The notes under the pieces were generated by a model, which saw only the letters and a list, made by a program, of their open reading frames with translations, was not told where the DNA came from and searched no databases. A stretch of DNA of 64,000 bases from contig JBOGVS010000002.1 of NCBI GenBank assembly GCA_050692555.1, positions 50,651 through 114,650 of the forward strand, written 5' to 3'. This document shows positions 23,399 through 62,954 of this stretch, in pieces. How positions within the stretch are numbered: position 1 is the stretch's first letter; the number at the start of each line of letters is the position of its first letter. The translations under genes and the position numbers were made by a program. Source of the stretch: Actinomycetota bacterium. GTDB lineage: Bacteria; Actinomycetota; UBA4738; CALAEC01.

Positions 23399-24084
<686 letters not shown>

Positions 24085-24088
<4 letters not shown>

Positions 24089-25308
24089 ACCGCTGGCGCC
24101 CGATCGCCCTGGCCGCCGTGGTGGCGGCGTCCGGCGCGGGAGGGACGATCCTGGCCGGCGCCGCGGCCGGGATGGGAGCCGGCGAGGTGGCCCACCTCGC
24201 GGCTCTGATGCTCCCCGCGGTGGGTGCGACGCTGGTCGCGGTGTGGGCCGCGCGCCCGCTGCTCCGACGGGCCACGTTCCGGCAGCGCCTCATGTCGGTG
24301 GCGCTCGTGGCGGTGGTGGCCAGCCTGGCGAACCTGGCGGTGCTGGCCGGCCTGATGTTCGTGAGCGCCCACGACGCCACGCTCATGGCCGCGCTGGTCG
24401 CCTACTCGGTGGGTGCCGGTGCCGGCGTCGCCCTGGTGCTGGCCCGGGACACCACGTCGGCGGTGGACAGGCTGACCCATTCCGCGCTCGAGCTGGCCGA
24501 GGGCAACCTGGACGCTCGCGTCGGACCGATCGACGGAGGGCCGGAGCTCCAGGCCCTGGGCTCGGCGCTCGACGAGACGGCCACCCGGCTCCAGGCGTCG
24601 ATCGCCGCCGAGCGAGCCGGAGAGGCGAAACGCCGGGATCTGATCACCGCGGTGTCGCACGACCTCCGGACGCCACTGGCTGGGCTCCGGGCCATGGTGG
24701 AGGCGATCGACGACGGCGTGGTCGACGACCCTCCCAGCCTCCGGCGCTACGTCGGCGAGATGCGCCGGCAGGTTCAGTCCCTGGTCGTCCTGGTCGACGA
24801 TCTCTTCGAGCTGGTGCAGCTGGACGCCGGAGCCATCGAGGCAGAGTCGGAGAGGGCTCGGCTGGCGGACGTGGTGGGTTCCGCGGTGGCGGCCTGCGGG
24901 GCACAGGCCGCGGAGAAGCGGCTGGTGGTGGAACAACGCCTGAACAGCGCGGGCGAGGCCCTGTGCTCGCCCCGGCTCGTCCGCGTGCTCCAGAACCTGC
25001 TCCAGAACGCCATCCGGCACACGCCGGCCGACGGCACGGTCCGGATCGAGGCCCGCCCGGAGGCCGGCGGCGTGGAGGTCGTGGTGGAGGACGGCGGCGA
25101 GGGCATCCCCCCCGAGAGCGCCGACCTGGTGTTCGAACCGTTCTGGCGAGGCGAAGCGGCCCGGACCTCCCCGGGCTCCGGCCTGGGCCTGGCCCTGGCC
25201 AAGCGGATCGTGGAGACGCTCGGCGGGGCCATCAGCGTCCGCAGCGACTCCACCACGGGGGCGAGATTCGCGGTCCTGTTGCCGGGACGGGCGGCTTCGC
25301 CGCAGTAG
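24085..25308 (+). CDS. Sensor histidine kinase (multi-TM, HAMP, HisKA, HATPase_c)
   Basis: GTG start overlapping the RR stop as GTGA. H-box VSHDLRTPLAGL, N/G-boxes LQNLLQNAIRHT...GSGLGLALAKRIVE. Confidence 0.85.
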
Positions 25309-51141: not shown

Positions 51142-53445
51142 CTACCTCTTCAGCTGGAACGGCACGCTCGACAGGACCACCCGCGGCTCGAACAGCAGCA
51201 TCCGCTTGATGAACAGCGCCCGGTTGTTGTGCAGCAGTCGGTGCCACCACCGGGTGACCAGGAACTCCGGGACGATCACTGCGGCAATCGTCCCCGGGTC
51301 GGCCGTCTCCTTCCGGACCTCCTCCAGCAGGGGGACGGTGAGGTCCCGGAACGGTGTCTCCACCACATCGAGCTGCATCCGGATGCCTCGCTCTGCCCAC
51401 TGCCGGAGGATCTCCGGTGCCTCCTCCGGCTCGGTGGCCAGGAAGACCGCCCGGGTCTTATGCGCATTGAGGCTGCGGGCGTAGTTGACCGCCCGAACCG
51501 TGGCATCGTGAGCTGCGGCCACAAAGACCAGGGCCACCACCCGCTCGGGGACCAGTGGACGCCCGACGGCATCCTCCGGCTGGTCCCTGCGGGCCAGCAC
51601 GGGAACGTCGGTGACGACCACTCCCGGCTCCTTCAGCAGGCGGAGCTTAAGGCGGAACGTTACCGGACGCGTGATGGCCCGTACCAGGGACCGCGTGGTG
51701 AACAGCTCCGGGATGACCACGGTCACGAAGTCCTTCCCGCCCCGAGGGATACGGCGCACGTGGTCGATCACCCCGTCGACCGGATCGGGGCTCCCCACGG
51801 ACATCAGGCGAGGGGCGCCCGGCGCCATCCTGTTCCACAGACCTTCGGCTTCGGTCGGGAGACGCTTCCCAACGTAGAGCGCATCGATGGAGGCGGGACG
51901 GAACGACCGCACGTATCCCACGGCCTCGGCCGCGGCGGCATCGATGTCCGTCATCACCAGCACCACGCGGGTCTCGCCGACATCCCCGAACGCGGTCCGG
52001 CCCCGTCCGAGCTCCTTCACCACCTCCTCGTAGTGCCGGTGGACCAACGAGAAGAGACCGACCAGGATGGGCATCGCCGCGATAACGATCCACGCTCCGC
52101 CGGCGAACTTCGTGACGGCCACGATCACCAAGACCACGCCCGTGGCGACGGCACCGATCGAGTTGATGACGGCGGCACGCTTCCAGCCCGACTCCCGAAG
52201 ACGGAGCCAGCGCCGCACCATACCCGTCTGGGACAGGGTGAATGCGGTGAACACCCCCACCACGTACAGCTGGATGAGCCGCGTCAGGTCGGCGTCGAAT
52301 GCCCACACCAGAAGGCCGGCCAGCGCGGCCAGCACGAAGATCCCGTTGGAGAACACCAGCCGGTCTCCCCGATTCTTGAATTGACTGGGCATGAAGCGGT
52401 CGCGGGCGAGGATCGCCGAGAGGCGAGGGAAGTCCTGGTACGCCGTGTTCGCCGCCAGGATCAGGATGAGCGCGGTGAAGACCTGGAGCACGTAGAACAT
52501 CGTGCCGCCTGAGAACACGGTCTCCCCGATCTGAGCAAGGACCGACTTCGCCCCCTCGAGGTGCTGACTAACCCGCACGTCCAGTGACCGCGCCAGGAAC
52601 GTGATCCCCAGGAACATGCTGATCGACATGGTCCCCATGACCGCAAGCGTCGTTGCCGCGTTGCGCGACTGGGGGCGGCGGAACGCCTGAACCCCATCGG
52701 CGATGGCCTCCACGCCGGTGAGCGCCGTCGAGCCGGAGGCGAACGCCTTCAGGACGACGAACAACGATAGGGCCTGCCCGGCTTCGAGAGGCAGAGTCGC
52801 GGAGGTCGCCTGACGGCACCCGCCGATGCACTGCACCAGGCCGGTGACCAAGGTGACGGCCACACAGGCCACGAACCCATACGTGGGGATGGCGAAGAGC
52901 GTCCCGGCTTCCTTCACGCCTCGCAGGTTGGCCAGCGAGATGATCGCGATAAGGATCAGGGCGATCGGTACGCGCGCGCCTGCCAACCCCGGCACGGCGG
53001 AGACGATGGCGATCGTTCCCGCCGTCACGCTGACGGCGACGGTAAGGACGTAGTCCTGCAGGATCGCCGCCGCAGCGATCAGACCAGGGACTGTCCCCAG
53101 GTTCTCCCGGGCCACGATGTAGGAACCGCCACCCGCCGGATAGGCCCGCACGGTCTGCCGATAGGAGGTGATGACCACGGCGAGCACCGCGGCGATCACC
53201 GCTGCGATCGGCAGCATCAGGCTGAAGGCGGCCGCTCCCGCCGCCGCCAGCACCAGCATCATCTCCTCGGTGGCGTATGCCACTGAGGAGAGGGGGTCCG
53301 ACGAGAAGACCGGGAGGGCCAGGGTCTTGGGCAGGAGGTGGTGCTCGTGCTTCGCGGTGGAGATGGCCCGGCCCAGTACCACGCGCTTCAAAAGGCCCCG
53401 CCCCCCCGGTTCCGTCCCCCGGGAGGGACGAACGGTCGTCCCCAT
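51142..53445 (-). CDS. APC-superfamily permease fused to two C-terminal USP-like (adenine-nucleotide alpha-hydrolase-like) domains; paralog 1
   Basis: N-terminal 12-TM permease (LLPKTLALPVFSSDPLSSVAYATEE...), then two tandem alpha/beta domains of about 130 aa (RVVLVMTDIDAAAAEAVGYVRS...; RVVALVFVAAAHDATVRAVNYARSL...AAVIVPEFL) with USP-like topology but no ATP-binding Gly motif. The start was chosen at MGTTV by alignment to the paralog. Confidence 0.8.
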   Translation of the reverse strand: MGTTVRPSRGTEPGGRGLLKRVVLGRAISTAKHEHHLLPKTLALPVFSSDPLSSVAYATEEMMLVLAAAGAAAFSLMLPIAAVIAAVLAVVITSYRQTVRAYPAGGGSYIVARENLGTVPGLIAAAAILQDYVLTVAVSVTAGTIAIVSAVPGLAGARVPIALILIAIISLANLRGVKEAGTLFAIPTYGFVACVAVTLVTGLVQCIGGCRQATSATLPLEAGQALSLFVVLKAFASGSTALTGVEAIADGVQAFRRPQSRNAATTLAVMGTMSISMFLGITFLARSLDVRVSQHLEGAKSVLAQIGETVFSGGTMFYVLQVFTALILILAANTAYQDFPRLSAILARDRFMPSQFKNRGDRLVFSNGIFVLAALAGLLVWAFDADLTRLIQLYVVGVFTAFTLSQTGMVRRWLRLRESGWKRAAVINSIGAVATGVVLVIVAVTKFAGGAWIVIAAMPILVGLFSLVHRHYEEVVKELGRGRTAFGDVGETRVVLVMTDIDAAAAEAVGYVRSFRPASIDALYVGKRLPTEAEGLWNRMAPGAPRLMSVGSPDPVDGVIDHVRRIPRGGKDFVTVVIPELFTTRSLVRAITRPVTFRLKLRLLKEPGVVVTDVPVLARRDQPEDAVGRPLVPERVVALVFVAAAHDATVRAVNYARSLNAHKTRAVFLATEPEEAPEILRQWAERGIRMQLDVVETPFRDLTVPLLEEVRKETADPGTIAAVIVPEFLVTRWWHRLLHNNRALFIKRMLLFEPRVVLSSVPFQLKR

Positions 53446-53642
53446 CAGCGGGTCTCGATCCCGCCGTTCCGGGCGCGCGAAGGATCCTCGGCCGGGCTCC
53501 GGGAGCCCGCCATCAGCCGCAGGATGTCCTCGTGGAGCCGGGCCTCCCGGCTGGCGTGCGCGTACTCGCGCCAGGCGATCCAAGACCGGATCACCGGCCC
53601 GACCAGCAGGCCGATCACGAAGCCACTCACCAGCTCAGCCAC
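53445..53642 (-). CDS. 65-aa single-TM micro-ORF translationally coupled to the permease-USP gene
   Basis: GTG start preceded by GGGAGGAGG at an 8-nt spacing. Product VAELVSGFVIGLLVGPVIRSWIAWREYAHASREARLHEDILRL... is a TM helix plus a charged tail. Its stop overlaps the permease ATG (TGATG). Confidence 0.35.
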   Translation of the reverse strand: MAELVSGFVIGLLVGPVIRSWIAWREYAHASREARLHEDILRLMAGSRSPAEDPSRARNGGIETR

Positions 53643-53791
53643 CTGCCCTACCTCCTCCCTCGCTGTTAACGGGCTCAGTGTCGGAGACCACCCGTAAACG
53701 GCCGGTGTGAGTTGGGGGTGAAGCCGTAAGAAGGTCGTTAAGAGGGCACGGAGGCGTTGTCAGTGACGGAGGGGGCGCCCAGACTGATCAC

Positions 53792-55213
53792 GTGCGCGCG
53801 CTTCAGCCGTCCCGATGGCCCCCGCCGTTCCGCGTGGCCATGCCGGCCCTCCTGTTCCCGGGCATCGCCACCGCGCTTGCCGCCCTTCCCTTTACCGTCT
53901 CCACGACCACAGCATCGATGGCCTTCGTCTTGGCGGTCACCGGGGCCGCCGTGGTCGGGGGTTCGGCTGCGGGGTTCGGAGCATCCCTCGTCTCGTTCCT
54001 GGCGCTCAACTTCTTCTTCACGCCTCCGCGGTTCACCTTGAGCGCCGGCAAAGGCGAGGACGTGGTCGCTCTGGTCGTGTTCCTGTTGGTCTCGGCGGTG
54101 GTGGGTTCGCTGTTGTCCCGCGCCATCGCCCAGCGCGTGCGGGCCGAGCGACGGGAGCGAGAAGCCCGGCTCCTTCAATACCTGGGGACGAGACTGTTGT
54201 CGGGAGAACCGCCCGAGGAGATCCTTCAGAGCTTCGGCCAGGCGCTCACCGAGCTGGTCGGCGTGAAGCGGTACGAGGTCTTCCTGGAACCCGGGAACCG
54301 TCTCGCCGTTGAGGCGGGCATCGCCGAACCGGGCCTTCATCTGGAGGAATTCCCAATCCTGTCAGGGAGCGATCGGGTCGGGTCGATCCGCATCCATGCC
54401 GGAGGCGAGCCGTCGGGGCTGGAGGAAGACCGCCGACGCCTGATCCGGGCGTTCGCGGCGCAGCTGGCCCTGGCCCTGGAGAGCGCCCGTCTGGCCCAGG
54501 TGGCCCGGGACGCCCGGGTGAGCGCGGAGCGCAGTCAGCTCCAGGCCGCCCTCCTTCAGTCGGTGACCCACGACCTCCGCACCCCTCTGGCCTCCATCAC
54601 GGCCTCCGTCACCAGCCTCCTCGACGCGAGCATGGAGCTCCGCCGGGAGGACCAGGGTGATCTCCTTGAAACGATCCGCCAGGAGGCCGAACGGCTGGAC
54701 AGATTGGTCGGAAATCTCCTCGACCTGTCCCAGCTGCGGGCCGGCGCCTTGACGCCGTCCAAGCGACCGGCGGCGATCGACGAGGTGGTGGAGGGAGTTC
54801 TAGCTCGCATGGAACCCACGTTGCGCCGGCACCGTCTCAACGTGATCCTCCGAGAGGGTCTGCCCGAGGTACCTTTCGACGTGGTCCAGATCGATCAGGC
54901 CCTGACGAACATCCTGGAGAACGCGGCGAAGTACAGCCCGCCGGGATCCCAGATCACCGTCTCCGCCGCTCGCTGGGACAACACCGTGCAGGTACGGATC
55001 GCCGACCAGGGTCCGGGGATTCCGGGTGACGCGCGTGAACGGGTATTCGAGCCGTTCTTCCGGGCGCCCGGAGGTGCGGCGGAGGGTACGGGGCTGGGGC
55101 TGGCGATCGCCCACGCCGTGGTGACAGCGCACGGGGGCACAATCTGGATCGAGCAAGCACCCGGCGGTGGCACCGCGGTGACCTTCCGGCTCCCATTGAG
55201 CAACCCTGCCTGA
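53792..55213 (+). CDS. KdpD-like sensor histidine kinase lacking the N-terminal KdpD and USP domains (DUF4118 membrane domain, GAF-like region, HisKA, HATPase_c)
   Basis: DUF4118-type TM block with LNFFFTPPRFTLS, H-box VTHDLRTPLASI, and ATPase motifs NILENAAKYSPPGS...GTGLGLAIAHAVV. The start (GTG at 53792 or ATG at 53840) is uncertain. Confidence 0.85.
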   Translation: MRALQPSRWPPPFRVAMPALLFPGIATALAALPFTVSTTTASMAFVLAVTGAAVVGGSAAGFGASLVSFLALNFFFTPPRFTLSAGKGEDVVALVVFLLVSAVVGSLLSRAIAQRVRAERREREARLLQYLGTRLLSGEPPEEILQSFGQALTELVGVKRYEVFLEPGNRLAVEAGIAEPGLHLEEFPILSGSDRVGSIRIHAGGEPSGLEEDRRRLIRAFAAQLALALESARLAQVARDARVSAERSQLQAALLQSVTHDLRTPLASITASVTSLLDASMELRREDQGDLLETIRQEAERLDRLVGNLLDLSQLRAGALTPSKRPAAIDEVVEGVLARMEPTLRRHRLNVILREGLPEVPFDVVQIDQALTNILENAAKYSPPGSQITVSAARWDNTVQVRIADQGPGIPGDARERVFEPFFRAPGGAAEGTGLGLAIAHAVVTAHGGTIWIEQAPGGGTAVTFRLPLSNPA

Positions 55214-55914
55214 TGGTAATCAGGGTGCTGGTCGTGGACGACGATCCGCAGATCCTCCGAGCCGTGCGCACGAGTCTCCAGGCGAGGGGGTACGACGTCC
55301 TGACCGCGGGAAACGGCGAGACGGCTCTCGATCTCATGAGCTCAGAGAACGTCGACATGATGGTCCTGGATCTCAGCCTGCCGGGCATCGACGGGCACGA
55401 GGTGATCCGAAGGATGCGGACCTTCTCGGAGGTGCCGGTGCTGGTCCTTTCGGTACGCGAGTCCCAGGACGACAAGATCCTGGCGCTGGACGCGGGGGCC
55501 GACGACTACGTCACCAAGCCCTTTGGCATCGGCGAGCTACTGGCCCGGATGCGCGCTCTGGAACGCCGCGCTCATCCCAACGCCGCTTCGCCACCGATCC
55601 TTCGGTTCGGTGAGCTGGAAGTCGACCTCCGCCGGCAGCTCGTGCGCCGGGGGAGCGAGCCGATCCGGCTCACCCCCACCGAATACCGCCTGCTGGAAGC
55701 CATGGTCACCAACCCCGGGAAGCTGCTCACCCATCGGTGGCTCTTGAGCAGGGTGTGGGGGCCTGGATACGCGACCGAGACCCACTACGTGCGGATCTAC
55801 GTCCGACAGCTCCGACAGAAACTGGGCGATGATCCGGCCCGCCCCCGGTACGTCGTCACGGAGTCCGGACTGGGCTACCGGTGGCTCCCTGAGCCCGAGG
55901 AGCGGGCCCCCTGA
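55213..55914 (+). CDS. KdpE-like OmpR-family response regulator
   Basis: Receiver domain plus winged helix. The C-terminal LTHRWLLSRVWGPGYATETHYVRIYVRQLRQKLGDDPARPRYVVTESGLGYRW closely matches E. coli KdpE. 1-nt overlap with the HK gene. Confidence 0.9.
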   Translation: MVIRVLVVDDDPQILRAVRTSLQARGYDVLTAGNGETALDLMSSENVDMMVLDLSLPGIDGHEVIRRMRTFSEVPVLVLSVRESQDDKILALDAGADDYVTKPFGIGELLARMRALERRAHPNAASPPILRFGELEVDLRRQLVRRGSEPIRLTPTEYRLLEAMVTNPGKLLTHRWLLSRVWGPGYATETHYVRIYVRQLRQKLGDDPARPRYVVTESGLGYRWLPEPEERAP

Positions 55915-55997: not shown

Positions 55998-56543
55998 TCA
56001 CAGCTCGATCTCAGAAGCCACCGACTGGAGACCCTCGATCCCCAGGGCGATGAACTCGTCGAGGGGTACTCCGAGACTGTCCTCGACATCGGTGATCTCC
56101 TGGCGGTTGACACCGGGAGCGAAGGCCTTCTCCTTCAGCTTCTTCTTCACCGACGAGACCTTCATTCCGTCCGCCTTTTGCGGCCGGACCAACGCCGCGG
56201 CGACCAGCAGTCCGGCGACCGCATCGGCGTGCACCACGGCCTTGGACATCCGATCCGTCCGATAGGACTCGTGGGCATGGGCCAGGACCCCGTTCACCAC
56301 CTTCTCGTCGACGCCTGCTTCCCGCAGCCATTCGGCCGCCTGGTAGGCGTGCCGGTCCGGGTTGTCGTGCGTCTGGTCCTGGTCGAGATCGTGGAACAGC
56401 CCGACGAGCGCCCATGTGTCCTCGTCCTCGCCGAAATGCTGGGCCAGCCGCCGCATCACTCCCTCCACGCTGATCAGGTGGCGGACGGTGGTCTCCTTCT
56501 CCCCTTTCTCCCGTACCAGCTTCAGCGCTTCACCTCGATCCAT
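55998..56543 (-). CDS. HD-domain phosphohydrolase
   Basis: HD motif (VGLFHDLD...HAYQAAEWL...VLAHAHE). Co-oriented with permease paralog 2 and overlapping it by 14 nt. Confidence 0.7.
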   Translation of the reverse strand: MDRGEALKLVREKGEKETTVRHLISVEGVMRRLAQHFGEDEDTWALVGLFHDLDQDQTHDNPDRHAYQAAEWLREAGVDEKVVNGVLAHAHESYRTDRMSKAVVHADAVAGLLVAAALVRPQKADGMKVSSVKKKLKEKAFAPGVNRQEITDVEDSLGVPLDEFIALGIEGLQSVASEIEL

Positions 56544-58815
56544 TCGACCTCCTGATCTTGTAGGGCACGCTCGAGAGCACCACCCGCGATTCGAACAACA
56601 GCATGCGCTTGATGAACAGAGCCCGGTTGTTGTGGAGCAGCCGATGCCACCACCGGGTCACGAGGAACTCGGGCAGGATCACCGCGGCCAGGGTGGACGG
56701 GTCGGTCGTGACTCGCCGGACCTCTTCGAGAAGCGGCGGCCCCAGGTCGCGGAACGGAGCCTCGACCACGTCGAGGCGGATGCCGATGCCTCGCTCTGCC
56801 CACCGCTGCAGGATCTCGGGGGCTTCCTCCGGTTCGGTGGCCAGGAAGACGGCTCTGGTCTCGTGGGCGTTCAGGCTCCGGGCGTAGTTGACGGCCCGCA
56901 CGGTGGCATCGTTGACGGAGGAGACGAACACCAGAGCTTCCACTCGCGGAGGGATCAGCGCCCGGCCGTCCACCCCCACGAGCTCCCCTTCTTGTGCCAG
57001 CACCGGCACGTCGGTCACGACCACCTGTGGCTCGGCCAGGAGCCTAACCTTCAGGCGGAACGTGACCGGCTTTACCAGAGCCCGCACAAGCGACCTCGTC
57101 GGGAAGAACTCAGGGATCACAACGGTCACGAAGTCCCCCGGGTCACGAGGGACCCGGCGAACATGCTCGATGACCGCCTCCACTCGCGATCTCCCCTCCG
57201 CCGGCTCCAGCGGCGGAAGCCCGCGACTCATCTCGGCCCAGAGCGCCTGGGCGTCCCCGATCGGCCGGTCCCCGGCGTAGACGGGGTGGACCTCGGCCGG
57301 CCGGAGCGAGCGGACGTATCCGAGGGCCTCGGCGGTGGCGGGATCGAAGTCGGTCAGCACCAGCACGACCCGGTTGAGCCCCGGATCACGGTAGTTGACG
57401 TCGTGGCGATCCAGCGCAGCGGAGACCGCCGTGTAATGCCGATTCACCTGGAGCAGGGCGGTGATCATGATCGGCAGGGCCGCGACGACCATCCAGGCTC
57501 CTTCGGCAAACCGGGTCACCACCACCACGGCGAGGACCACTCCGGTCGTGGTCGCCCCGATCCCGTTTATCATCGCGTTCCGTCGCCAGCCCGCTTCCTT
57601 GGTGCTGGCCCACCTCCGCACCATCCCGGATTGAGAAAGGGTGAACGCGGTGAACACGCCGACCAGGTAGAGCGGGATCAGGCGCGTGAGCCTTCCATCA
57701 AATGCCCACACCAGCGCTCCGGCCAGGACCGACAGCACCAGGATCCCGTTCGAGAACACCAGCCGGTCTCCGCGGTTCTTGAACTGCCCGGGCATGAAGC
57801 GATCTCGCGCCAGGATCGCCGACAGCCGGGGGAAGTCCTGGTACGCGGTGTTGGCGGCCACGATCAGGATCATGGCCGTGAACGCCTGCAGCCCGATAAA
57901 GAGCGCACCGCGACCGAAGATCGTTGCCCCGATCTGAGACAAAACCGACCGCGAGGCCACGATCTCCTCCGTGACCCGGACGTCCAGCGTCCTGGCCAGG
58001 AACGTGATCCCCAGGAACATGGAGATCGACATCACGGCCATCACCGAGAGCGTCGCCGCGGCATTCTTGCCTTGCGGCCTCCGGAAGGCCTGGACGCCGT
58101 CGGCGATGGCCTCAACCCCCGTCAGGGCGGATGATCCCTGAGTGAAGGCCTGCAACACGAGGAAGATCGTGATCGACTGCGTGGCCTCCAGAGGCAGCCC
58201 GGCGGTGGCTGCTTCCGGGCATCCGCCGACGCATCTGACGAGCCCGGTTATCACGGTCAAGCCCACCACCGCGACGAAGCCGTAGGTGGGGACGGCGAAC
58301 AACATGCCCGACTCCCGCACCCCCCGGAGGTTGACCAGCGCAATGAGGGCGATGAACCCCAACGCCAGGTTCACGCGATGCGGCGCGAGCTCGGGGACGG
58401 CTGACGTGATCGCGATTGCTCCGGCGGTCACACTGACCGCGGCGGTGACGACGTAGCCGATCAGGATGGCGGAGGCGGCCAGGAGGCCCGGGAAGGTGCC
58501 GAGGTTCTCGCGGGCCACGATGTATGAGCCACCTCCGCGAGGATATGCCCGGACGGTCTGGCGATAGGAAGTCACGACGATCAGGAGGACGGCCGCGATG
58601 GCCAGCCCGATGGGCACCATGAGAGCCAGGGCTGCCGCGCCGGCCAGCACCAGGATCAACATCATCTCCTCGGTGGCGTAGGCCACGGAAGACAGGGGAT
58701 CTGAGGAGAACACCGGCAGGGCTAACGTCTTGGGGAGGAGGTGATGTTCTGTCTTGGCGGTGGAGATCGCCCGGCCCAGAATGACCCGCTTCAGGGTGTC
58801 GCCGACGGTGGCCAC
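56530..58815 (-). CDS. APC-superfamily permease fused to two C-terminal USP-like domains; paralog 2 (Rv2690c-like position next to trkA)
   Basis: Full-length paralog of 51142..53445; the 3' ends share about 85% nucleotide identity. Divergently adjacent to the trkA pair, as M. tuberculosis Rv2690c is to ceoB/ceoC. Confidence 0.8.
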   Translation of the reverse strand: MATVGDTLKRVILGRAISTAKTEHHLLPKTLALPVFSSDPLSSVAYATEEMMLILVLAGAAALALMVPIGLAIAAVLLIVVTSYRQTVRAYPRGGGSYIVARENLGTFPGLLAASAILIGYVVTAAVSVTAGAIAITSAVPELAPHRVNLALGFIALIALVNLRGVRESGMLFAVPTYGFVAVVGLTVITGLVRCVGGCPEAATAGLPLEATQSITIFLVLQAFTQGSSALTGVEAIADGVQAFRRPQGKNAAATLSVMAVMSISMFLGITFLARTLDVRVTEEIVASRSVLSQIGATIFGRGALFIGLQAFTAMILIVAANTAYQDFPRLSAILARDRFMPGQFKNRGDRLVFSNGILVLSVLAGALVWAFDGRLTRLIPLYLVGVFTAFTLSQSGMVRRWASTKEAGWRRNAMINGIGATTTGVVLAVVVVTRFAEGAWMVVAALPIMITALLQVNRHYTAVSAALDRHDVNYRDPGLNRVVLVLTDFDPATAEALGYVRSLRPAEVHPVYAGDRPIGDAQALWAEMSRGLPPLEPAEGRSRVEAVIEHVRRVPRDPGDFVTVVIPEFFPTRSLVRALVKPVTFRLKVRLLAEPQVVVTDVPVLAQEGELVGVDGRALIPPRVEALVFVSSVNDATVRAVNYARSLNAHETRAVFLATEPEEAPEILQRWAERGIGIRLDVVEAPFRDLGPPLLEEVRRVTTDPSTLAAVILPEFLVTRWWHRLLHNNRALFIKRMLLFESRVVLSSVPYKIRRSNGSR

Positions 58816-58867: not shown

Positions 58868-59533
58868 GTGAGATCGATGCATCTGGTGATCATGGGTTGC
58901 GGGCGGGTGGGGGCCGAACTGACCGTGCAGCTTTCCAAGGCCGGACACACCGTCTGCATCGTCGACAAGCGGAAGGAGGCCTTCGAGCGTCTCCCGCCGG
59001 GGTTCAACGCCAAGACCATCGTGGGCATCGGGTTCGACCGCGAGGTCCTGGAGGAGGCCGGGATCAAGGAGGCCGACGCGTTCATCGCCGTGTCCAACGG
59101 GGACAACTCCAACATCGTCTCGGCCCGGGTGGCCCGGGAGCACTACCGGGTCCCCAAGGTCATCGCCCGGATCTACGACCCCCGGCGAGCGGAGATCTAC
59201 GAGCGGCTGGACATCCCCACGGTGGCCACGGTCCGGTGGGCGGCCAAGCAGGTCCAGTACCTCCTGTTCCACGGCAAGGAGACCATGCGGGACACCCTGG
59301 CTGGCGGCTCCCTCCTCCACCTGGCGGTTGGGATCCCCGATCACCTGGTTGGCAAGCAGGCCGACAGCGTGCACTCAGAGGGGGAGGTGGAGGTCGTCGG
59401 GGTCGAGCGGGGCGGCGAGGGGTTCATCCCCACCCCCGACTCCACCTTCAAGGAAGGCGACGTGGCCCACTTCATCGTGCACAAAGACCACGTGGACAAG
59501 TTCGACATGCTGCTCGAACCGGTGGCCGAATGA
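58868..59533 (+). CDS. trkA: TrkA-family K+ transport regulatory protein (RCK N + C domains)
   Basis: HLVIMGCGRVGAEL Rossmann fold with a TrkA_C domain; CeoB-like. Confidence 0.85.
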   Translation: MRSMHLVIMGCGRVGAELTVQLSKAGHTVCIVDKRKEAFERLPPGFNAKTIVGIGFDREVLEEAGIKEADAFIAVSNGDNSNIVSARVAREHYRVPKVIARIYDPRRAEIYERLDIPTVATVRWAAKQVQYLLFHGKETMRDTLAGGSLLHLAVGIPDHLVGKQADSVHSEGEVEVVGVERGGEGFIPTPDSTFKEGDVAHFIVHKDHVDKFDMLLEPVAE

Positions 59534-59639: not shown

Positions 59640-60323
59640 TTGAGGATCGTGGTGGCCGGCGCGGGCAACATCGGCCGTTACATGGCCCACGACCTGGTGG
59701 AGCGAGGCCACGAGGTGTCGCTGATCGAGCAGGACCCCGCCATGGCCGAGCGGGCTAGCCACGACGTCGCCGAGGACGTCACTATGGTTTTGGGCGATGC
59801 CTGCGAGCCATGGGTCCTGGACAAGGCCGACGTCCGCTCCTCGGACGTGATGGTTGCCGCGACGGGCGACGACGAGGACAACCTGGTGATCTCCTTGCTC
59901 TCGAAACAGGAGTACGGCGTTCCCCGAGTGGTGGCCCGGGTCAACCACCCCAAGAACGAGTGGCTGTTCAACGAGACCTGGGGCGTCGACGTGGCCATGA
60001 GCCCACCGCACGTCCTCACCGCTCTGGTCGAGGAAGCCGTGACGGTGGGCGACCTGGTGCGGCTGTTCAAGCTGGAGCGAGGCCAGGTCACCCTGGTGGA
60101 GCTGACCATCGACGAGAACGCCCCGATGCAGGGCCGGCCCCTCTACGAGCTCCGGCTTCCTCCCGACTCCGCCATCGTGGCCATCCTCCGGGGCGGCCAC
60201 GTGGTCATCCCCCAACCCGAGACCCAGATCGTGGGCGGGGACGAGGTCATGGCCATCGCCACGCCGGAAGCCGAGGATAAGCTTCGCACCACGTTGCTCG
60301 GCCCGCCCTCGTCGAGCGGGTAG
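59640..60323 (+). CDS. trkA: TrkA-family K+ transport regulatory protein, second copy (CeoC-like)
   Basis: RIVVAGAGNIGRYMAHDLVERGHEV Rossmann fold with a TrkA_C domain. The start is probably TTG/GTG (59640 or 59648). Confidence 0.8.
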   Translation: MRIVVAGAGNIGRYMAHDLVERGHEVSLIEQDPAMAERASHDVAEDVTMVLGDACEPWVLDKADVRSSDVMVAATGDDEDNLVISLLSKQEYGVPRVVARVNHPKNEWLFNETWGVDVAMSPPHVLTALVEEAVTVGDLVRLFKLERGQVTLVELTIDENAPMQGRPLYELRLPPDSAIVAILRGGHVVIPQPETQIVGGDEVMAIATPEAEDKLRTTLLGPPSSSG

Positions 60324-60692: not shown

Positions 60693-62954
60693 CTAACTCG
60701 CCTTGGTGGTCACCGCCGCGGCTTCGGGGCTGGGCGGCCCGCTCTCCGGGACCAGCTCGGCGGTCTTGAGCCGTTTCGAGTACCAGATGGCCCCGGTCAC
60801 CACGGCCAGGGCACCCACGGCCACCACCGCCCGCACCACGCCGTCGTCGGCGAAGGAGACCACCAACGGAGCGGCCAGCAGAGCCACCAGGTTCATCACC
60901 TTGATCAGCGGGTTGAGCGCAGGCCCCGCGGTGTCCTTGAACGGGTCCCCCACCGTGTCCCCGATCACCGTGGCCTTGTGAGGCTCGGACCCCTTGCCTC
61001 CGTAGAGGCCCTCCTCGATGAGCTTCTTGGCGTTGTCCCACGCCCCACCGGCGTTCGAGAGCATCACCGCCAGCAGCTGGCCGGTGAGGATGGCACCGGC
61101 CAGGTACGCCCCCAGGGCCTCGGCCTCCAGGGCGAAGCCAACGAAGATGGGGGCCAAGACGGCCAGCAGCCCGGGCGTGAGGAGCTCGCGCAACGAGGTC
61201 CGGGTACAGATGTCCACCACCCGGCCGTAGTCCGGGGTCTCGGTCCCGTCCATGATCCCCGGGTGGTCGCGGAACTGGTTGCGAACCTCCACCACCACCT
61301 GGGCCGCGGCCCGGCCCACCGCCCGGATGGCCAGTGCGGAGAACATGAACGCGATCGACCCCCCGATCAGCAGACCGACCAGCACGTCGGGGTGGTTGAT
61401 CCGGATGTCCAGACCGCCGCCCACCGCCTGCTCGAACGATCCGAACAGTGAGGTGGCGGCGATCACCGCGGTGGCGATGGCCATCCCCTTGGTGATGGCC
61501 TTGGTGGAGTTCCCCACGGCGTCGAGACCGGCGAGGATCTCCGCGGGCTTCCCCTCGAACTCGCCGGACATCTCGGCGATCCCCTGGGCGTTGTCGGCGA
61601 CCGGACCGTAGGTGTCCATGGACACGATGACACCGACCGTTGTGAGCATCCCCATCCCGGTCAGCGAGATGAAGTACAGACGCTCGGCGGTGTTGTCCCC
61701 CAGGAGGAACGCTCCGGTCATCGTCGCCGCGATCAGCAGGATGGCGTACACGGTGGACTCCAGGCCCACCGAGAAGCCCGAGAGGATCGTGGTCGCCGCG
61801 CCGGTCTGCGAGGACGAGGCGATCTCCTGGACCGGCTTGCGCTTGGTGGACGTGAAGTGCTCGGTGATGACCTGGATCAGGGCGGCCAGGACCAGGCCCA
61901 TCACCACGGCCCAGAACACCCTGATGTCGTCGACGTACAGCGTGGCCACCACATACACCGCGGCCGCCGACAGGATGGCCGAGAGGAAGAAGCCCCGGTT
62001 GATGGCCCTCATCCCGTGCTCGGTCTCCGACCGGGGGCGCACGGCGTAGATCCCGATGATCGAGGTGATGACCCCGATGGCCCGGACGAACAGCGGGAAC
62101 ATCACGCCGACGATGGCGCCCTCCGGCGACCCTGCGAACGCCGCGGCTCCCAGGATGATCGAGGCCACCAGGGTGACCTCGTAGGACTCGAACAGGTCGG
62201 CGGCCATCCCCGCGCAGTCGCCCACGTTGTCCCCGACGTTGTCTGCGATCACCGCCGCGTTGCGGGGGTCGTCCTCCGGGATGTTCTTCTCCACTTTCCC
62301 CACCAGGTCCGCGCCCACGTCGGCGGCCTTGGTGAAGATCCCTCCGCCGACCCGCATGAACATGGCCAGGAGGGCTCCCCCGAACCCGAACCCCACCAGC
62401 ACGGAGGTGGCGTCCTCCTTGTAGATGAGGAGGATGGCCGCGGCTCCCAGGAGCCCCAGGCCCACGGTGAACATCCCGGCGACCCCACCGGTCCGGAACG
62501 CTATGGTCAGGGCTCGCCGGAGCCCCGCCTCACGGGCGGCGTTGGCCACCCGCACGTTGCCCCGCACCGCCAGCCACATCCCGGCGAAGCCGGTGACGGC
62601 CGAGAACCCCGCCCCCAGGACGAAGGCGAGGGACCGCCCGAACCGGATCGAGAAGTCGCCGGCCCGCACCGGGTCGACCGGGAGGACGAAGAACAGCGCC
62701 ACGGCCAGGATGCCCAGGAACAGCCCGACGGTCCGGAACTGGCGGTTCAGATACGCGCGACTCCCAACCTGGATGGCCTCGGCGATCTGGCGCATCTTCG
62801 GGGTGCCCTCGGGCGCCGCCAGGACCCAGCGACGGAGCACGTAGGCCACCACCAGAGCCAGGAGGGAGATCCCCAGGATGACCATCAGGGCGTTGTCTTC
62901 GAACGATCCGAAGACGGCCTCGATGGAGCCGCCTTCCTGGCCCAGCACGTGCAT
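60693..62954 (-). CDS. hppA: Membrane-bound proton/sodium-translocating pyrophosphatase
   Basis: 16-TM V-PPase. Motifs [41 protein letters not shown] and [14 protein letters not shown]. Confidence 0.9.

Follow-up and report, generated by a model that had tools for sequence, protein, structure and literature searches.

The window analysed here is the whole 64,000-nucleotide (nt) stretch of contig JBOGVS010000002.1 (assembly GCA_050692555.1, positions 50,651 to 114,650), from a metagenome-assembled genome (MAG) labelled Actinomycetota bacterium. It contains a gene for a KimA-type K+ transporter and, divergently oriented, a gene pair for a KdpD-like sensor kinase and its response regulator. Between the transporter and kinase genes, on the transporter strand, lies a 65-codon open reading frame (ORF), which a sequence-only reading of this DNA had pointed out and which is annotated in GenBank as 'hypothetical protein ACRDH8_01410' (Table 1). 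The ORF had been described as ending over the permease ATG in the form TGATG, and the two genes do share one base, at 53445. Three interpretations had been offered for it, namely that it encodes a KdpF-like accessory subunit, that it is a leader peptide with a regulatory role, or that its product is a new small partner of the transporter. The last is favoured by the results below, since the protein belongs to a conserved family, is under purifying selection and is always coupled to the transporter gene; the leader peptide was not borne out, and the KdpF proposal did not hold beyond analogy.

Table 1. Features of the small-gene locus and the second KimA gene, in positions of the window.
Feature	Position	Strand	Remarks
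Small-protein gene, 65 amino acids (aa), MAELVSGFVIGLLVGPVIRSWIAWREYAHASREARLHEDILRLMAGSRSPAEDPSRARNGGIETR	53445..53642	minus	65 codons plus stop, GTG start (ORF listing)
Shine-Dalgarno (SD) sequence GGGAGGAGG	53659..53651	minus	8 nt between the motif and the GTG of the small ORF
TGATG junction	53443..53447	minus	TGA of the small ORF (53447..53445) shares its A with the kimA ATG (53445..53443)
KimA-family K+/H+ symporter, paralog 1, 767 aa	51142..53445	minus	12-transmembrane (TM) APC-fold domain plus enlarged cytoplasmic region
Putative response-regulator box	53693..53741	minus	TTAACG-N6-TTACG at 53741..53725; third TTACG 32 nt on, at 53697..53693
Sensor kinase, DUF4118 + weak GAF + HisKA + HATPase	53792..55213	plus	Pfam; resembles the C-terminal half of KdpD
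OmpR/KdpE-type response regulator	55213..55914	plus	Coding region overlaps the 3' end of the kinase gene
KimA paralog 2	56530..58815	minus	70% identical to paralog 1

The GC content of the small ORF at the three codon positions (.71/.55/.91) was like that of its neighbours (transporter.68/.47/.88, kinase.73/.50/.83), and its reading frame was kept in about 30 independent loci. Ratios of nonsynonymous to synonymous substitution (dN/dS, pairwise Nei-Gojobori) were 0.04-0.47 over a core of 45 codons and 0.3-1.2, near neutral, over the tail; dS was typically 0.6-0.9, and two of the closest pairs gave a dN/dS of 0.15-0.19. The core values show purifying selection at the amino-acid level on both the TM helix and its cytoplasmic continuation. 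By these measures the 65-codon ORF is a genuine gene, far beyond chance, for a predicted single-pass membrane protein.

The SD ahead of the GTG had been singled out in the sequence-only reading as one of the strongest in the window. The motif itself occurred 4 times in the window against 3.07 expected, and alone is therefore not rarer than chance. Its position is meaningful, since GGAGG recurs 6-9 nt ahead of the small-ORF start in the closest relatives (L002, L006, L007, L008 and L009; L and P numbers denote related loci and homologous proteins). Loss of the frame or of the SD in orthologous loci had been named as grounds for discarding the ORF; the frame was found throughout, with GGAGG in close relatives only. 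In distant clades (L027, L035, L022, L046, L042, L075) no SD stood before the likely start of the small ORF, and no more than about 40-60 nt lay between the last TTACG repeat of the upstream region and the aligned core. Taken together, these two features suggest that the small-gene transcripts of these clades may lack a leader or carry only a very short one.

A sequence search with the small protein returned three homologues of 55-76% identity, and a profile search (1.84 billion searched) returned 106 cluster representatives at E ≤ 1e-3, including 24 at E ≤ 1e-10. Those 106 matches were 46-141 aa long, bar one outlier of 1123 aa (P0109), which matched by the charged-helix segment only (seven matches, E 5e-4) and is likely spurious as a family member or fusion. 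The marginal match P0097 (E 9e-5) had an unrelated gene context and was treated as a non-member. A fused form, in which the small protein would be an additional helix at the N-terminus of KimA or the kinase, did not occur among the profile matches. A second profile search gave 125 proteins, all from metagenomes or MAGs, so that their function can be reached only by heterologous testing. Their names were 'hypothetical' or obviously stray (e.g. NhaA, ADP-ribosylglycohydrolase), and none had a Pfam domain.

Pfam and NCBIfam scans of 70 family members gave no credible family, and sequence and profile searches of the PDB with the small protein family gave nothing credible. Two apparent relationships were rejected. 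The JGI name 'XapX-like' on homologue P0004 looks like annotation noise, as no match to the XapX domain (DUF1427) was obtained with Pfam or NCBIfam in the 70 members. The ssl2009 thylakoid membrane protein family (NF053524) was the sole match, below threshold, in an NCBIfam scan at E ≤ 1 of the window protein and P0002-P0004 (best 16.3 bits versus a cut-off of 58 bits), and it was also the sole recurrent match in the wider scan (13 of the 70 members, best E 4.4e-4, far below threshold); the similarity is most likely a generic likeness of TM-plus-helix proteins. Judged from these searches, the small family is previously undescribed and conserved in uncultured soil Actinomycetota.

The family shares a signature in five parts, numbered here as in the window protein. 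The first is a glycine zipper, G3 (89%)-x3-G7 (99%)-x3-G11 (99%)-x3-G15 (76%)-P16 (100%); the second is R19 (97%)-S-W21 (86%); the third is W24-R25-E26 (90%)-W/Y27; the fourth is A30 (93%)-S-R32 (90%)-E-A34 (90%)-x-L36 (91%); and the last consists of L41, R43 and M44. In short, GxxxGxxxGxxxGP lies in the TM helix and RSW..WREW..ASREA.L on its continuation, and the tail beyond the signature showed no conservation. The window protein deviates at the first position, with E instead of G3 and a short N-terminus, and has the zipper residues G7, G11 and G15-P16. A four-fold glycine zipper is a classic surface for tight helix packing. AlphaFold2, run with the 70-sequence alignment, predicted a single uninterrupted helix over residues 2-46 followed by a disordered tail, with a mean predicted local distance difference test score (pLDDT) of 94-96 over residues 1-30, in agreement with the earlier description of a TM helix followed by a charged tail. 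The positive charges R19, R25 and R32 after the hydrophobic segment suggest an N-out/C-in orientation, with a cytoplasmic helix continuation to about residue 46.

The downstream gene, which had been labelled 'permease-USP', is by full-length similarity, cytoplasmic domain included, a KimA/KUP-type K+ transporter; the permease part of the label stands, and the identity is sharpened to a KimA-type K+ importer. Paralog 1 matched the KimA of PDB 6S3K at E 6.7e-119, with residues 20-480 aligned to KimA 5-461 and residues 637-767 to KimA 474-606, while Pfam recognised AA_permease_2 only. It is about 160 residues longer than Bacillus subtilis KimA, owing to an extra cytoplasmic segment (residues ~485-636) ahead of the C-terminal domain. 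This segment may be a duplicated nucleotide-binding-like domain, corresponding to the 'USP' of the label.

KimA loci were collected with paralog 1 as the query from one genome per species (GTDB), which gave 78 loci, all in Actinomycetota MAGs, and the small gene was detected in them with the family hidden Markov model (HMM) on six-frame translations. It was present in 23 of the 78 loci, always on the KimA strand. In all 20 loci with both genes inside the retrieved DNA, the distance from the stop of the small ORF to the start of KimA was between -3 and +25 nt; the remaining small-gene matches were at a locus edge, where the layout of the window predicts a second KimA gene. The junctions consisted of 1-nt TGATG overlaps, 4-nt ATGA or GTGA overlaps, overlaps of 17, 19 and 25 nt, or gaps of 0-3 nt. 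Every homologue with downstream DNA was followed on the same strand by a KimA homologue (about 30 loci, including L001-L003 and L082-L088). Among 12 independent contigs examined (L001-L003, L082-L088, one without DNA), all had the same arrangement except that of P0097. The coupling persisted even where the identity of KimA to the window copy dropped to 39-47%.

This conserved overlap or abutment of stop and start makes the small gene a predicted translationally coupled operon partner of kimA. As the junction architecture varies and the coupling is nevertheless retained, the pattern argues for selection on the co-translation of the two genes. The kimA start in the window has a weak SD-like stretch at most (GGGA and GAGA in the 3' end of the small ORF) and no GGAGG, and little or no SD was seen ahead of the kimA start in L002, L008 and L009.

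Paralog 2 had been noted as having no equivalent of the small ORF, which was confirmed: the intergenic DNA before its divergent TrkA-like neighbour measures only 52 nt, and a single small-gene copy was detected in the window by the family HMM. Among 122 KimA gene matches, the small gene was absent from 69 KimA genes outside the second-in-tandem position, and 31 further KimA genes were second in tandem (in L022, L023, L024, L028-L041 and others), making tandem duplication very frequent. No unrelated TM-containing micro-ORF was found upstream in the 61 KimA genes without a homologue that were checked. Three layouts of the KimA module were seen: kinase-regulator-kimA(-kimA) in one direction; a small gene-kimA(-kimA) unit with a divergent kinase-regulator pair; and kimA with a divergent trkA. 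Neighbour-joining of the KimA TM domains placed the carriers of the small gene in one pure clade of 11 and several scattered groups. The occurrence of close KimA relatives in different layouts suggests recombination or gene conversion between KimA paralogs.

The kinase gene divergent from the small gene encodes a protein that has the 4-TM DUF4118 domain only, without the N-terminal sensor domain of KdpD; translation may in fact begin at an ATG some 45 nt further downstream. All 13 small-gene loci with sufficient DNA on the upstream side had the kinase and regulator genes in divergent orientation, as did L083, L084 and L086-L088. The sole rearrangement was L023, where the regulator gene, the small gene and kimA follow in that order and the small gene is still attached to kimA. 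Of the KimA loci without the small gene, 24 had a distant kinase/regulator pair (41-49% identity) placed co-directionally upstream of kimA, and 20 had no nearby kinase. The small gene therefore marks one module type, with the divergent kinase-regulator pair on one side and the small gene and kimA on the other.

The intergenic region between the small gene and the kinase gene carries TTACG repeats. TTACG occurred 11 times in the 64-kb window and at a background of 0.27 per kb in the loci, in DNA that is otherwise 69% GC. Direct (T)TTACG repeats at an 11-nt spacing, followed after another 21 or 32 nt by a third copy, were kept in many related loci (L002, L003, L010, L019, L022, L023, L046, L052, L065, L075, L086), and TTCACG variants were seen in L083 and L084. 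Direct repeats with an 11-bp spacing are the typical site of OmpR/PhoB-family regulators, and the divergent OmpR/KdpE-type regulator probably uses the box as its operator. The 11-bp-spaced repeats suggest that the small gene-kimA unit would be under the control of this regulator, and the box together with the divergent pair places the unit in a putative K+-related regulon. When 53200..54100 was scanned against Rfam at E ≤ 1, the only match was a meaningless sub-threshold one to a small nucleolar RNA, and there was no cyclic di-AMP (c-di-AMP, ydaO) riboswitch; a scan of the region for intrinsic terminators found none. A sigma-70 promoter scan also found nothing, and is uninformative for promoters in Actinomycetota. 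The KimA identity, the kinase/regulator linkage, which is as tight as that to kimA, and the conserved repeat box were all absent from the sequence-only reading.

From this arrangement we propose, with moderate confidence, that the small protein is an accessory or regulatory subunit of KimA that would be made by translational coupling with kimA. Translational coupling is common among the subunits of one complex. The TGATG overlap and the lack of a good SD on kimA suggest that ribosomes terminating on the small ORF would re-initiate on kimA, so that both proteins would be made together at the membrane, and the KdpD/KdpE-like two-component system encoded in the opposite direction would activate the unit. 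The small protein would be inserted N-out/C-in, its GxxxGxxxGxxxGP helix would pack against TM helices of the KimA dimer, and its juxtamembrane cytoplasmic helix (RSW..WREW..ASREA.L) would contact the cytoplasmic face. It would then act on its transporter as KdpF, AcrZ or MgtS do on theirs, and it may serve both KimA paralogs. More tentatively, it could be the first example of an accessory subunit dedicated to a KimA/KUP-type transporter or, in a bolder form of the idea, the connector within a K+-sensing membrane complex of three parts, the others being the KimA 'trigger transporter' and the sensor-less KdpD-like kinase. Were the bolder form true, the kinase in control of this operon would be informed, through the glycine-zipper protein, of the state of the transporter.

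Several observations weigh against an accessory subunit of KimA. Published KimA structures are homodimers without an accessory subunit (PMC6994465). The many KimA homologues that lack the small gene, paralog 2 among them, mean that KimA-type transporters in general do not need it. Its presence also follows the KimA tree unevenly; L046 has the small gene and its close relative L020, which is divergent from trkA as paralog 2 is, does not. The small gene is missing from the 24 co-directional loci and the 20 kinase-less loci alike. Finally, a mirror-tree comparison gave r =.72 for the small protein with the kinase and.66 with KimA (partial correlations.43 and.21), a crude measure on 13 loci with non-independent pairs, in which KimA, kinase and regulator all correlate with the small protein and a difference of this size does not settle the partner.

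Some of these points would suit a different partner. The small protein could be a feedback regulator of the DUF4118 kinase, in the manner of MgrB or SafA, or a bridge between KimA as 'trigger transporter' and the kinase; made along with KimA, it would inform the kinase of how far the transporter is expressed or active. We consider this rather unlikely. Its linkage to the divergent kinase and regulator genes is as strict as that to kimA, but the coupling itself is to kimA and not to the kinase gene, and the rearranged L023 keeps the small gene on kimA. The absence of the small gene from all 24 loci with the distant, co-directional kinase subfamily fits a kinase partner, as does a kinase left with four TM helices of DUF4118 and no KdpD-type sensor domain; known small kinase regulators, however, are usually encoded by stand-alone genes. 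The slightly higher partial correlation for the kinase is not decisive, for the reasons given above.

It is less probable still, and in our view a poor prospect, that the small ORF is mainly a translational device which would deliver ribosomes to the SD-poor kimA, or tie its translation to membrane targeting, with the peptide itself having little function of its own. The strong SD on the small ORF beside the weak one of kimA in the window clade is what such a device would look like, the overlap is conserved in all loci, and the small gene is found exactly where kimA heads its own transcription unit and is missing where kimA follows a regulator gene. A device of this kind would not account for about 45 codons held at a dN/dS of 0.04-0.47 with invariant G, P, R, W and E residues across at least 106 clusters, and the distant clade without an SD before the small ORF has kept the protein sequence nonetheless. 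An attenuation leader peptide, a chance ORF in GC-rich DNA and an N-terminal extension of the permease are, even jointly, scarcely credible: a short ORF in the 5' region and an in-frame TTG at 53583 would allow them, but there is no terminator-like structure, Rfam element or spacer ahead of kimA (the overlap is 1 nt), the small-ORF frame is the one conserved under purifying selection over its 45-codon core, and the upstream extension of the permease frame, which the sequence-only reading had held open, has the non-coding GC pattern.92/.71/.55 and is stopped within a few codons upstream of the KimA start in L022, L023, L038, L065 and L069.

Returning to the proposed KimA subunit, its likeness to KdpF is a functional analogy only. 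Both would be single-TM small proteins encoded by the first cistron of a K+-uptake operon beside a KdpD/KdpE-type two-component system, and KdpF is thought to stabilise its transporter complex. The presumed partner here is a KimA/KUP-type secondary symporter and not a P-type ATPase complex, however, and the kinase lacks the KdpD N-terminal domain; at 65 aa with a conserved cytoplasmic helix and a tail, the small protein also differs from KdpF (~29 aa), to which it has no sequence similarity. No Pfam match to KdpF (PF09604, Potass_KdpF) was obtained at E ≤ 0.1 for the window protein, nor for any of 70 members at E ≤ 0.01. The head of a kdpFABC operon was likewise rejected, as the downstream gene encodes a KimA-type APC-fold symporter, here and in all related loci.

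A single-pass helix is also found in AcrZ (partner AcrB), MgtS (MgtA), MgtR (MgtC) and sarcolipin/phospholamban (SERCA), which bind the TM domain of a large transporter and tune its activity or stability, and in phospholamban a cytoplasmic helix continues from the TM helix as predicted here. Most of the bacterial modulators among these are encoded apart from their targets, whereas the small gene always overlaps its presumed target gene; there is no homology. MgrB and SafA, which act on PhoQ, are small single-pass proteins as well; their genes are under the cognate response regulator and they act on the kinase in the membrane, a likeness that would fit both the TTACG box and the constant presence of the DUF4118 kinase gene beside the small gene. 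Unlike the small gene, theirs are stand-alone and not coupled to a transporter, there is no homology, and in MgrB it is the periplasmic C-terminus that acts, whereas the conserved part here is the TM helix and the cytoplasmic helix.

B. subtilis KimA (YdaO; PDB 6S3K) and the product of the downstream gene are clearly homologous in both the TM and the C-terminal domain. A c-di-AMP riboswitch lies ahead of kimA in B. subtilis, and the protein is described as a homodimer that has no accessory protein (PMC6994465; Gundlach 2019 via PMC10117811). The locus in the window has instead no riboswitch, a small coding gene, apparent two-component control and a transporter with some 160 extra cytoplasmic residues. 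A Streptomyces review lists KimA-like genes and makes no mention of a small partner (PMC10117811), and neither such a partner nor the family was described in the literature searched on KimA with small proteins or with two-component control in actinobacteria.

Gram-positive bacteria and plants import much of their K+ through KimA/KUP transporters, which have been described as self-sufficient homodimers regulated by c-di-AMP. A co-translated partner wired to a KdpDE-like system in place of a c-di-AMP riboswitch would, if true, be a different regulatory design of K+ uptake, and it would sit in a large uncultured soil lineage of actinobacteria. Small single-pass partners of transporters or kinases are a known kind; what is new is the unannotated family, tied to a class of transporters with no known partner of this kind. 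As a group, the small proteins are a well-supported addition to the poorly annotated small membrane proteins of bacteria, with at least 106 clusters, strict synteny and a motif clear enough for a profile-HMM model.

Other genes of the window concern cations as well. The TrkA-like gene from which paralog 2 diverges is one of two TrkA/RCK-like genes (58868..59533 and ~59650..60323, both on the plus strand), and a gene for an H+-translocating pyrophosphatase (60693..62954, minus strand) lies just past them. The 12-kb stretch is thus a predicted cation-homeostasis neighbourhood. Elsewhere in the window, at 23417..25284 on the plus strand, there is a second, distantly related response-regulator/histidine-kinase pair, whose members are 42% and 31% identical to those encoded at 53792..55914.

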